Under the pieces are notes generated by a model. The model did no database searches. It was not told where the DNA came from and saw nothing but the letters and a program-made list of their open reading frames with translations. From Escherichia coli (GTDB lineage: Bacteria > Pseudomonadota > Gammaproteobacteria > Enterobacterales > Enterobacteriaceae): a stretch of 64,000 bases of DNA. This document shows, piece by piece, positions 49,820 to 50,659 of this stretch. The stretch lies in NCBI RefSeq assembly GCF_044324785.1, contig NZ_CP172127.1; one strand, written 5' to 3'. Every line of letters begins with the position of its first letter. Within the stretch, counting starts at the first letter, position 1. A program made the position numbers and the translations under genes.

Positions 49820-50359
49820 TCATATTGCCCCCAGCATGGCGGTGACCATCGCCATCAATGGACCAGCCAGATCCGGGTCCACTCGAAACATCGACACAAT
49901 GCCTTCACTCATCTCCTTCAGTTTCTGGTGGCGTGGTGCGTTGAGAATGACCGCCTGCTTTGCCTCACAGAGTTCCTTTTCCATTTCAGCCAGCCGAGCC
50001 ATGAAGCTATCCTGCTCAACCAGGTGGCCGCGATATTCCAGCGGTAGTACCGCCAGAATTGCCGGGGTCAGTTCACGCACGTTATTTCGGTATTTTTCAG
50101 AATCGAATTTGTTATCGAGGAAGCGGAACAGCTTCTGGCGTGCACGGCTGACATCATCAGGGAAATCGATAGTGCCGCCGCCCTGCTCCCGATACTCATT
50201 CACAATGAGTGTGGCAACGACATCCTGATTATCTTCAGCCGACCAGGCGCGGACGGCATCACGGATTTTTTCGTGGCCTGGCACCTGTTTTGTTTGAGAA
50301 CGATTTATCACCGCAGTCGGGCTAAATCCGCTAGTCTGTTGGTATGTAAGTGGTTGCAT
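49820..50359 (-). CDS. YdaT-like protein (CII-position regulatory / toxin-like family)
   Basis: 179-aa ORF with motifs resembling recalled Rac YdaT (EYREQGGG; LTPAILAVLPLEYRGHL); sits between cro-like gene and O. Confidence 0.6.
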   Translation of the reverse strand: MQPLTYQQTSGFSPTAVINRSQTKQVPGHEKIRDAVRAWSAEDNQDVVATLIVNEYREQGGGTIDFPDDVSRARQKLFRFLDNKFDSEKYRNNVRELTPAILAVLPLEYRGHLVEQDSFMARLAEMEKELCEAKQAVILNAPRHQKLKEMSEGIVSMFRVDPDLAGPLMAMVTAMLGAI

Positions 50360-50428
50360 AATTGACTCCTTTAGTTTGAATTGACTGTTAAGTTGATTGC
50401 TTATTGTTAAAGAGCGTGAAATGGAAAT

Positions 50429-50659
50429 TTAAGCTGCGTTCTTTTCGGTGTGTGGAAACAACTTCGGAAGATCCGGGCGAATCTGGTATGCCTTCACTAC
50501 TCCACCAGTAGCCGTAACAATGCTGCCGACATGTTCAGGGGATACCTTTGCTTTGTTGTGAAGCCACTTATAGACGGCCTGCTGTGAAACTTCGCAGGCA
50601 GCGCCCAGTTTCTTTTGTGAACCAACGATATTGATCGCTGTTTTGATAGCTGGGTTCAT
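50429..50659 (-). CDS. cro: Cro-like HTH repressor (YdaS/Cro family)
   Basis: 76-aa ORF divergent from cI with HTH segment (…QKKLGAACEVSQQAVYKWL…). Confidence 0.65.
   Translation of the reverse strand: MNPAIKTAINIVGSQKKLGAACEVSQQAVYKWLHNKAKVSPEHVGSIVTATGGVVKAYQIRPDLPKLFPHTEKNAA

Follow-up and report, generated by a model that had tools for sequence, protein, structure and literature searches.

YdaS and YdaT of CP-933P were shown to work as analogues of Cro and CII; this YdaT switches on PRE933P without being toxic, and the pair was stated not to be a toxin-antitoxin system (Jurenas 2021, PMC8630535). The protein is a tetramer with two DNA-binding faces, which could bridge two sites, and it footprints the inverted repeat TTGATT-N6-AATCAA (PMC9986795). 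The YdaT of Rac recognises ATGATT-N6-AATCAA at the start codon of its own gene and raises racR expression 29-fold by way of a reverse promoter; it also binds upstream of the host gene rcsA, with altered motility, capsule and biofilm. When it is induced, viable counts fall by four orders of magnitude, a toxicity that arises because rcsA is mis-regulated, being transcriptionally activated (PMC11879457). Between racR and ydaS, the footprint of Rac YdaT extends over about 100 bp of the ydaS promoter. CP-933P and Rac YdaT share only 30% identity, yet each binds the box of the other, indicating that the DNA specificity of the YdaT family is conserved.

The toxin-antitoxin reading of such pairs reportedly goes back to a 2007 prediction and persists in Pfam names. 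Two 2017 mSphere papers describe the YdaS and YdaT of Rac as toxins that RacR represses. That reading was rejected by Jobling 2018, who cites an earlier direct test without toxin-antitoxin activity, as well as the toxicity of over-expressed lambda CII (PMC5917428).

In the window, the 64,000-nucleotide stretch of Escherichia coli DNA analysed here, two neighbouring minus-strand genes encode proteins of 76 and 179 amino acids. Both are flanked by an S24 cI-type repressor on one side and by lambda-type O/P replication genes on the other, within a prophage at the argU/DLP12 site that appears complete. The gene order (cI, cro, cII, M3-like RNA, O and P) is the same as in the annotated phi80 map. 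The two genes are thus very probably the Cro/CII regulatory pair of a phi80-type lambdoid prophage, and both the phi80-like arrangement and the CII role of the YdaT family are already known. The features of the region are as follows.

50764-51453, plus strand: cI-type prophage repressor of 229 aa, with HTH_3 and Peptidase_S24 (Pfam and PHROG matches)
50660-50763, no strand assigned: cI-cro intergenic operator/promoter region (repeats and hairpin in the sequence)
50429-50659, minus strand: Cro-like repressor of 76 aa with a YdaS/Cro-family HTH (PF15943; coordinates from the ORF list)
50404-50416, minus strand: boxA-like element CGCTCTTTAACAA in the cro-cII spacer (read from the sequence)
50332-50337, plus strand: TAGTCT, predicted as the -10 element of a leftward promoter resembling PRE (conserved antisense TAnnnT; putative activity)
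50294-50311, no strand assigned: predicted CII site resembling a YdaT box, in cII codons 17-22 (conserved alignment column; putative binding)
49820-50359, minus strand: phi80-type CII of the YdaT family, 179 aa (PF06254, phrog_163, identity to phi80 cII, fold; coordinates from the ORF list)
49708-49812, plus strand: oop/M3-like antisense RNA gene at cII-O (promoter scan, fold, covariation)
48804-49733, minus strand: O-type replication initiator (PF04492, Phage_rep_O; phrog_277; alignment with phi80 gene 15)
48106-48807, minus strand: P-type helicase loader (Phage_lambda_P, PF06992, E 3.7e-61; phrog_109)

The ATG of the 179-aa gene is preceded at a distance of 7 nt by the Shine-Dalgarno sequence AAGGAG. 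As expected for the YdaT family, the gene is flanked by the cro-like gene on one side and the replication genes on the other, and is transcribed divergently from the prophage repressor. The protein matched Pfam YdaT_toxin (PF06254) with an E-value of 2.6e-29 and 101.9 bits (cut-off 21), and phrog_163, "CII-like transcriptional activator", over the full profile length with an E-value of 2.6e-66. Its identity to the annotated cII of mEp237, HK225, HK639 and phi80 was 52-66%. Lambda CII gave no BLASTP alignment with it at E<=100, Pfam Phage_CII did not match, and no NCBIfam model matched. The homology search therefore confirmed the original prediction that the gene after the cro-like ORF belongs to the YdaT family and is not a lambda cII homologue.

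The AF2 model of the 179-aa protein (pLDDT 83) showed helices at residues 29-42, 45-58, 70-82, 88-104 and 119-138. Residues 1-27 form a disordered N-terminal extension and residues from about 29 to 110 a POU-like HTH domain, whereas the long helix 119-138 is followed by two conserved C-terminal helices ending in the hydrophobic tail GPLMAMVTAMLGAI. When the model was compared with the PDB by Foldseek, the five best matches were chains of 8bt1 and 3c4r (probability 1.00, target-normalised TM 0.66-0.69); the next match had an E-value above 1, and no toxin fold was matched. Arg79 in the recognition helix aligned with Arg60 of CP-933P and Arg57 of Rac, and was nearly invariant in the 31-sequence family alignment.

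The 76-aa protein matched Pfam YdaS_toxin (PF15943; E 4.1e-17, 62.2 bits, cut-off 30), more weakly P22_Cro and HTH_3, and phrog_35, "transcriptional repressor" (E 1.5e-27). Among PDB sequences it matched the Cro protein 3bd1 (E 7e-4), and its identity was 30% to Rac YdaS and 62% to HK639 Cro. The regulatory function that had been proposed for the pair was correct. The intergenic region between cI and cro contains a 25-bp palindrome, ATGGTTGTT-N7-AACAACCAT, at 50698-50722, in addition to further TGGTTGT repeats. A candidate for PR, assigned by eye, consists of TTGACT (50710-50715, minus strand), 17 nt and TAATCT (50687-50692); the consensus promoter scan did not report PR. The boxA-like element of the cro-cII spacer occupies the position of lambda nutR and may function in the manner of lambda nut and rrn boxA; no obvious boxB hairpin was read after it.

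The longest ORF of cI begins at 50698, but PGAP and isolated phages start the gene at the Met corresponding to 50764. Copies of cI with 97-99% identity carry RefSeq and phage annotation that supports its assignment as a repressor, and its identity to cI of phage HK639 was 44%. A non-rigorous search by eye of the PL region between 52230 and 52830 found no small cIII-like ORF. A Ren-like gene also lies downstream of the 179-aa gene on the minus strand. The module occurred in approximately 40% of the complete E. coli genomes (2225 of 5426). In 10 phage records, conservation covered only 62% of the 1.8-kb module, which speaks against inheritance of the two genes as a cognate pair. Isolated phages that are 96-98% identical here annotate cI, Cro and cII, and the prophage is collinear with such phages across 81-85% of its length. 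This arrangement is that of phi80, on record since 1988 (X13065), and is no unusual deviation among lambdoid phages.

Between cII and O, a promoter (TTGAAT-17-CATAAT, 49708-49736) precedes a stem-loop followed by GCCAUUUUUG, and the RNA would end at about 49812. A permissive Rfam scan of 47000-53500 gave no meaningful match, and the oop/M3-like RNA is therefore supported instead by promoter scan, folding and covariation. The fold had an energy of -25.2 kcal/mol with a z of -2.6. A search for related loci with the phi80-type alignment gave only relatives of 97-100% identity, uninformative for covariation, and diverse loci were therefore gathered individually. The hairpin is kept in seven phages, with compensatory changes in 6 of its 13 pairs. 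The annotations of phi80 and HK639 show M3 RNA at the corresponding position. The longest ORF of the O gene (48804-49823) has its annotated start overlapping the cII stop, while PF04492 aligned with residues 51-145 and phrog_277 from residue 31. The homology to lambda and phi80 O begins at Met31 of the longest ORF, which has the ribosome-binding site GGGAGGAA before it and aligns with the first codon of phi80 gene 15. The start annotated at 49823 is therefore probably placed 30 codons too far upstream. Iterons of ori were read within the O gene at about 49258-49380.

A search for TTGATT-N6-AATCAA with up to two mismatches gave no site in phi80 and none where cro and cII of the window meet, so that a comparative, position-based analysis was needed. 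Among 11 diverse phi80-type cII genes, an N6-spaced palindrome (+49 to +66) occurred at one column of the codon alignment in nine, the next best column reaching six. The copy in the window, TTGAGA-ACGATT-TATCAC on the plus strand (GTGATA-N6-TCTCAA in gene sense), matches the published consensus at just 8 of 12 positions; other copies are ATGATA-N6-AATCAA (mEp237), CTGATA-N6-AATCAA (ST13) and GTGAGA-N6-TCTCAC (L099). The Ile codon 18 is ATA in 9 of the 11 genes, ATT in two and ATC in none, whereas 59% are ATC elsewhere in these genes, and the rare ATA sits in the left half-site of the predicted box. An antisense TAnnnT was found at a single column in all 11 genes (next best, 4; peak of the sense-strand control, 2). 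In the window, 20 nt separate the box from the corresponding -10 element downstream; this spacing would put the box centre at about -41.5 and the predicted start at about 50344. Third-position identity of codons for the same amino acid was 0.73 in codons 1-12 versus 0.42-0.51 elsewhere, and synonymous-site conservation was not raised over the box codons 13-24 (0.48). Because both elements are within coding sequence, their conservation may partly reflect the conserved peptide AxINRxQ.

Lambda PRE overlaps the start of cII. The predicted PRE-like promoter was not flagged by the consensus promoter scan, as would be expected if it is activator-dependent. Of the CP-933P and Rac boxes, one is downstream of the activated promoter and the other about 190 bp upstream, neither being at -41.5, and hence the proposed class-II geometry is not the established mode of the family. 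The specific placement of the repressor-establishment promoter at the box (50294-50311) and TAGTCT (50332-50337) is close to an even chance, if slightly below it. The cro-cII spacer also contains direct repeats, TTGACT/TTGAAT/TTGATT (50362-50398), which were considered as a lambda-style direct-repeat CII site. This was rejected, since phi80, HK225, mEp237 and CobraSix have unrelated spacers in which such repeats are absent. A perfect TTGATT-N6-AATCAA palindrome was also found at 43753-43770, where it overlaps the putative -35 of a nin-region promoter upstream of ybcN...rusA...Q. A more doubtful proposal, to which we give about one chance in three, is that phi80-type cII carries its own target promoter in the disordered 27-codon extension, kept mainly as DNA, and that the regulator might also bind 43753-43770. 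If true, binding there would be a direct link from CII to delayed late-gene expression, which lambda delays via paQ antisense RNA.

After infection or induction, PR would drive minus-strand transcription of cro, cII, O and P, and the 76-aa HTH protein would act as Cro, repressing the cI-cro operator region. By analogy with the CP-933P and Rac proteins, the 179-aa protein would tetramerise via the long helix in its C-terminal part, and its POU-like HTH domains would contact an inverted repeat with N6 spacing. It would then switch on a leftward promoter, predicted within the first 70 nt of cII and resembling lambda PRE, so that an antisense transcript would run through cro into cI and repression would be established. 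The oop/M3-like antisense RNA probably damps the expression of cII and O. The analysis of the window itself establishes the family, the fold, the order of the genes and the conserved DNA elements. Published work shows that the relatives bind DNA, assemble into tetramers and activate the promoter of the repressor, and we infer the same activity for the 179-aa protein; any proteolytic control of it is equally putative.

Several observations could be taken to mean that the pair is a toxin-antitoxin or toxin-repressor module, in which a 179-aa toxin is neutralised by the 76-aa protein: the Pfam names YdaT_toxin and YdaS_toxin, the PGAP label "toxin YdaT domain-containing protein", the use of the term toxins for Rac YdaS/YdaT in the 2017 mSphere papers, and the fall in viable counts upon induction of Rac YdaT (PMC11879457). 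However, the fold is that of an HTH transcription factor and was matched to no toxin fold by Foldseek, PADLOC matched neither the 76-aa nor the 179-aa protein, and phi80-type cII stands beside unrelated Cro proteins in CobraSix, KO-TP1, mEp237 and phi80, so that the two are not inherited together as a unit. For CP-933P YdaT, toxicity was absent and the authors deny a toxin-antitoxin system (PMC8630535), the toxicity of Rac YdaT is explained by rcsA activation (PMC11879457), and the direct test cited by Jobling gave no such activity (PMC5917428). On neutralisation of the toxin by direct antitoxin binding, published results for relatives are negative (PMC8630535, PMC5917428). The toxin-antitoxin part of the original prediction is thus extremely improbable. 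A growth effect of the over-expressed 179-aa protein is plausible by analogy, since Rac YdaT is toxic through rcsA mis-regulation (PMC11879457), but over-expressed lambda CII is toxic as well, and such toxicity would therefore not make the protein a toxin. The effect of Rac YdaT on motility, capsule and biofilm from its site upstream of rcsA (PMC11879457) could also suggest that host reprogramming, and not the lysis/lysogeny decision, is the main role of the gene in the lysogen; this is very unlikely, as the gene belongs to the PR operon, which is repressed in the lysogen, and isolated phages hold the same gene in the cII slot.

It is likewise conceivable that the 179-aa protein serves chiefly to repress or autoregulate the rightward operon, binding the cI-cro region and the cro-cII spacer and possibly looping the DNA. 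The footprint of Rac YdaT over the ydaS promoter, two matches to the YdaT box, one of 10/12 (TTGATTCAAATTAACCAC, 50670-50687, minus strand) directly downstream of the PR candidate and one of 9/12 within the cro-cII spacer, and the two DNA-binding faces of the tetramer, which could bridge two sites (PMC9986795), are consistent with this. Both box matches are, however, within chance expectation (4.5 matches with <=2 mismatches expected across the window) and neither is kept in phi80, HK225 and mEp237, whose spacers are unrelated. In addition, both characterised relatives activate repressor transcription (PMC8630535, PMC11879457), and the sole position-conserved elements are the +49 box and the antisense -10. 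We regard this explanation as unlikely, and retain the Cro/CII pair as the preferred reading. As a phi80-type CII lysogeny regulator, the gene is not to be counted as a toxin-antitoxin locus, and the annotation should be corrected in the thousands of E. coli genomes that label it "toxin YdaT domain-containing protein". The predicted promoter and the possible nin-region site would bear on the wiring of the second major class of lambdoid CII and would leave the general picture unchanged.

Compared with the known systems, lambda CII occupies the same map slot, is a tetrameric HTH protein that binds a site overlapping the beginning of its own gene, has an antisense oop-type RNA downstream, and does the same job as the characterised YdaT relatives, namely activating leftward repressor-establishment transcription. 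The fold is nevertheless different, and the YdaT tetramer, which is of 222 symmetry, binds an inverted repeat where lambda CII binds a direct one (PMC9986795). CP-933P YdaT (PDB 8bt1), with its close homologue 3c4r, belongs to the same Pfam family, is superposable over about 120 residues and shares the gene position and a published role as CII equivalent; its recognition helix, NTQKIFRWLD, corresponds to ARQKLFRFLD in the window, with the invariant Arg in both. However, it is only about 26-27% identical to the 179-aa protein, has neither the N-terminal extension nor the 40 conserved residues at the C terminus, has its strong operator at the ydaS end rather than within ydaT, and its gene adjoins a non-S24 repressor (PaaR2) and a toxin-antitoxin operon (PMC8630535).

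Rac YdaS/YdaT comprise the same two Pfam families in the same order downstream of a divergent repressor, and the Rac box at the ydaT start is near the position homologous to the predicted box of the window. The term "Rac-like" therefore holds at the family level, where Rac YdaT is 36% identical to the 179-aa protein over 96 residues, but not for the closest relative, which is phi80 cII. Rac YdaT is a 140-aa protein without the N- or C-terminal extras, the repressor (RacR) and the replication genes (ydaU/ydaV) of Rac differ in type from those of the window, and rcsA-mediated toxicity was shown for Rac only. The cII of phi80 (PHI80_49, JX871397; first X13065) is 65.6% identical across all 179 residues, including the 27-aa N-terminal extension, the conserved C-terminal helices and the hydrophobic tail. 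In phi80 and the orthologues of mEp237, HK225 and HK639, the gene fills the same slot from a Cro-like gene to an M3/oop-like RNA and an O-like gene, and the +49 inverted repeat and antisense TAnnnT are common to the window and the phi80-type cII orthologues. The adjoining cI and Cro of phi80 are of another immunity type, with almost no similarity between the Cro of the window and phi80 gp30, and the cro-cII spacers are unrelated (a boxA-like element in the window, a GC hairpin in phi80); for both Cro and cI, the nearest relative of the window is HK639.

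Both ORFs lie in the cro/cII position, as the original prediction had stated, and their neighbours were identified as lambdoid using Pfam and PHROGs. The genes of the region are as follows.

50764-51453, plus strand, repressor with HTH and S24 domains, divergent from cro/cII (Pfam and PHROG)
50429-50659, minus strand, 76-aa Cro-like ORF, YdaS_toxin PF15943 (E 4.1e-17, 62.2 bits, Pfam cut-off 30)
49820-50359, minus strand, 179-aa ORF, YdaT_toxin PF06254 (E 2.6e-29, 101.9 bits, Pfam cut-off 21)
49708-49812, plus strand, oop/M3-like antisense small RNA gene between cII and O, with promoter-like site, hairpin and U-run
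48804-49823, O-type initiator, longest ORF (Pfam and PHROG)
48106-48807, P-type helicase loader (Pfam and PHROG)
47807-48109, Ren-like gene (Pfam and PHROG)

In PHROGs, the 76-aa protein belongs to phrog_35 ('transcriptional repressor') and the 179-aa protein to phrog_163 ('CII-like transcriptional activator', E 2.6e-66). The 179-aa gene is preceded by the ribosome-binding site AAGGAG, 7 nt 5' of its ATG. By these matches, the neighbourhood of the two genes is a lambdoid immunity and replication region.

The 179-aa protein showed no detectable similarity to lambda CII, and its PF06254 and phrog_163 matches bear out the claim that it is YdaT-like and not a lambda cII homolog. The description of the pair as Rac-like holds at the family level only, since close relatives are the CII proteins of phi80 (65.6% identity over all 179 residues) and mEp237 (65.9%), followed by cII of HK225 and HK639 (51.9%), whereas Rac YdaT is 36% identical over 96 residues. 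The alignment with phi80 CII runs from end to end and takes in two parts that Rac YdaT lacks, an N-terminal extension of 27 residues and a C-terminal region of high conservation. That region ends in a hydrophobic tail (GPLMxMVTxMLGxx), GPLMAMVTAMLGAI. Conservation within phi80-type CII was highest in the C-terminal 40 codons (49820-49945), with about 70% pairwise identity, and this block is missing from CP-933P YdaT as well; by analogy with the C-terminal tail of CII in lambda, the block may serve as an additional oligomerisation element or as a degron for an FtsH/Lon-type protease.

The fold was predicted with AlphaFold2 from a 31-sequence alignment. The model (mean pLDDT 83, residues 1-24 disordered) comprises an HTH domain made up entirely of helices, and a long helix spanning residues 119-138. 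The solved YdaT structures 8bt1 and 3c4r were weak matches by sequence (E about 1e-3); in the Foldseek search against the PDB, however, the five best hits were all chains of these two entries, with probability 1.00 and target-normalised TM scores of 0.66-0.69, and beyond them no match was better than E=1. Arg79, which is nearly invariant in the family, aligned with the arginine named as essential in both experimental papers.

The YdaT family is a published equivalent of CII. According to Jobling, YdaS/YdaT were identified as Cro/cII analogues by Casjens in 2003 (PMC5917428). Jurenas et al. reported that CP-933P YdaS/YdaT regulate the repressor operon in a Cro/CII manner, with a PRE-like (repressor-establishment) promoter located between ydaS and ydaT that CP-933P YdaT activates; they found this YdaT to be non-toxic and a homologue of phi80 CII (PMC8630535). 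The structure solved by Prolic-Kalinsek et al. is a 222-symmetric tetramer with a POU-like HTH domain, and its footprint covers TTGATT-N6-AATCAA (PMC9986795). For Rac YdaT, Wons et al. demonstrated binding to ATGATT-N6-AATCAA at a site covering the ydaT start codon, and a 29-fold activation of racR through a reverse promoter that lies within ydaS; the protein also bound the CP-933P box, although it is only 30% identical to CP-933P YdaT (PMC11879457). Taken as a whole, the 179-aa gene is very probably the CII gene of this phage.

The original prediction had also allowed for a toxin-antitoxin-like module as well as a regulatory one, and it is the regulatory part that stood. The toxin-antitoxin label traces to a 2007 prediction, and a test in 2010 found no toxin-antitoxin activity (PMC5917428). 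In this locus, the predicted fold of the 179-aa protein is that of a transcription factor, and neither protein matched any PADLOC model. Nor do the two form a cognate pair, as the same cII type adjoins unrelated Cro proteins in phi80/HK225, mEp237, CobraSix and KO-TP1. The Cro and cI alleles of the window are nearest to those of HK639, at 62% and 44% identity respectively. Ten phage records share no more than 62% of the 1.8-kb module, which points to modular reassortment. On these grounds, the toxin-antitoxin interpretation is not supported and appears very improbable. Over-expression could plausibly affect growth, but such an effect would not be diagnostic of a toxin; over-produced lambda CII is itself toxic (PMC5917428), and the toxicity of Rac YdaT was attributed to activation of host rcsA (PMC11879457).

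Of 5426 complete E. coli genomes, 2225 (~41%) had the 1.8-kb cI-cro-cII module, and in 1503 of these 80% or more of the module was present. Its PGAP product names are 'S24 family peptidase | toxin YdaT domain-containing protein | transcriptional regulator | replication protein', and the 685 relatives of the 179-aa protein at E<=1e-3 in a large protein database are named 'toxin YdaT domain-containing protein' or 'regulator'. Isolated phages with 96-98% identical copies, including PhiR47_2, PhiR5_1, IdasGreatGrand, 4A7, Lambda_4C10 and Perceval, have these genes annotated as cI, Cro, cII and O, and the current RefSeq name of K-12 ydaT is 'DNA binding transcriptional activator YdaT'.

In the interval from the cII stop to the probable O start, a promoter-like TTGAAT-17-CATAAT with TG extension (49708-49736, plus strand) was followed by a stem-loop and U-run (-25.2 kcal/mol, z -2.6). 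Seven phages retain this hairpin, and 6 of its 13 pairs show compensatory changes; Rfam gave no family match for 49708-49812, and 'M3 RNA, homolog of lambda oop' is the annotation at the matching place in the records of phi80 and HK639. The longest O ORF (339 aa), whose start PGAP uses too, runs over the stop codon of cII. Similarity to O of lambda and phi80 sets in at Met31 (49733), which lines up with the phi80 gene 15 start and has its own ribosome-binding site GGGAGGAA. The annotated start is thus probably 30 codons too long, the extra stretch (49734-49823) crossing the small-RNA gene, with Met31 as the true start. Four to five iterons of type ACCTGATTCGGGTAAAC at 49258-49380 within O are presumed to be the replication origin, as in lambda. 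The cro-cII spacer contains a boxA-like element of rrn/lambda type after cro (CGCTCTTTAACAA, 50404-50416, minus strand), with no boxB evident nearby, and no clear N gene was seen in the PL region.

A tRNA-Arg(tct) gene (57507-57583) adjoins a tyrosine integrase and fimZ, with EmrE, an AraC-type regulator and YbcN further along. In the copy of E. coli ARS-C101, whose immunity region is 99.5% identical, PGAP annotates intD, quuD, rusA, ninE and ybcN by tRNA-Arg and fimZ. Judged from this context, the element is a lambdoid prophage that occupies argU, the DLP12 site. It looks complete, as ~45 kb of the window is collinear with PhiR34_1, PhiR68_2, Kati and other isolated phages (97-98% identity, 81-85% coverage). 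Between ren and the nin region (45626-47793, minus strand) lie emrE (NCBIfam EmrE, 239.9 bits) and a 508-aa ybcK-like serine recombinase. Both are also present in isolated phage PhiR47_2, and therefore emrE in these phages is mobile phage cargo and not solely a remnant of K-12 DLP12. Directly 3' of cI, in the rexAB 'moron' slot filled by GevT/GevA in PhiR47_2, two function-unassigned ORFs of 87 aa (phrog_4231) and 147 aa (phrog_3556; weak coiled-coil-like match, hydrophobic C-terminus) were found at 51536-52255 on the plus strand. PADLOC gave marginal PbeC matches only (E ~0.004), and the two ORFs are a candidate exclusion or defence cassette expressed in the lysogen.

The sole perfect TTGATT-N6-AATCAA in the 64-kb window was located at 43753-43770 (TTGATTTCCCAAAATCAA), in the ybcM-ybcN intergenic region; by dinucleotide shuffling, 0.02 such sites are expected in a window, with a perfect copy in 2 of 100 shuffles. 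Its minus-strand TTGATT coincides with the 'putative -35' of a nin-region promoter in the 1996 phage 82 record X92588, which marks the adjoining hairpin (43701-43738, 10-bp stem) as a 'possible regulator-binding site'. That this palindrome is a second target of the CII-like protein is speculation; if bound, it could allow direct control of transcription towards ybcN...rusA...Q.

No published consensus box was found at the cro-cII junction with up to 2 mismatches, and the direct TTGAYT repeats in the spacer, considered as a CII target, were not conserved in relatives. A codon alignment of roughly 560 columns was then made from eleven diverse phi80-type cII genes (37-100% protein identity), which came from phage records and from contigs of metagenomic or genomic origin. 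An N6-spaced palindrome occurred at gene +49..+66 in 9 of 11 (next best column 6/11), and an antisense TAnnnT at +23..+28 in all 11 (next best column 4/11; sense-strand control peak 2/11), each at exactly one column. The palindromes belong to the YdaT-box type; the elements and the corresponding boxes are as follows.

50294-50311, predicted box inside cII, GTGATA-N6-TCTCAA
50332-50337, plus strand, -10-like hexamer TAGTCT, 20 nt downstream of the box
mEp237 box, ATGATA-N6-AATCAA
ST13 box, CTGATA-N6-AATCAA
P0144 locus box, CTGATT-N6-CATCAG, shifted 6 nt together with its TATTAT
P0174 locus box, GTGAGA-N6-TCTCAC

The isoleucine codon in the left half-site was ATA in nine genes, ATT in two and ATC in none, as against 59% ATC and 12% ATA elsewhere in the same genes, and third-position identity among same-amino-acid codons was 0.73 in codons 1-12 versus 0.42-0.51 in the rest of the gene. 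Both observations support a constraint at the DNA level. In the proposed geometry, the box centre would fall at about -41.5 relative to a leftward start at about 50344, and the transcript would run antisense over the cII start and cro, then into cI. The window box matches the published consensus at only 8 of 12 positions, box and -10-like element both lie within coding sequence, synonymous-site conservation was not raised in the box codons (0.48), and the promoters activated in CP-933P and Rac do not have their box at -41.5. This specific placement of a PRE-like promoter within cII, predicted from the alignment, is accordingly tentative, with chances slightly short of even.

In summary, the module has the well-known phi80-type Cro/CII arrangement and is already known as such; the modestly new element is solely the predicted promoter and box within the 5' end of cII. 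The placement would follow the same logic as in lambda, where PRE overlaps the cII start, and the box of Rac is close to the homologous position.
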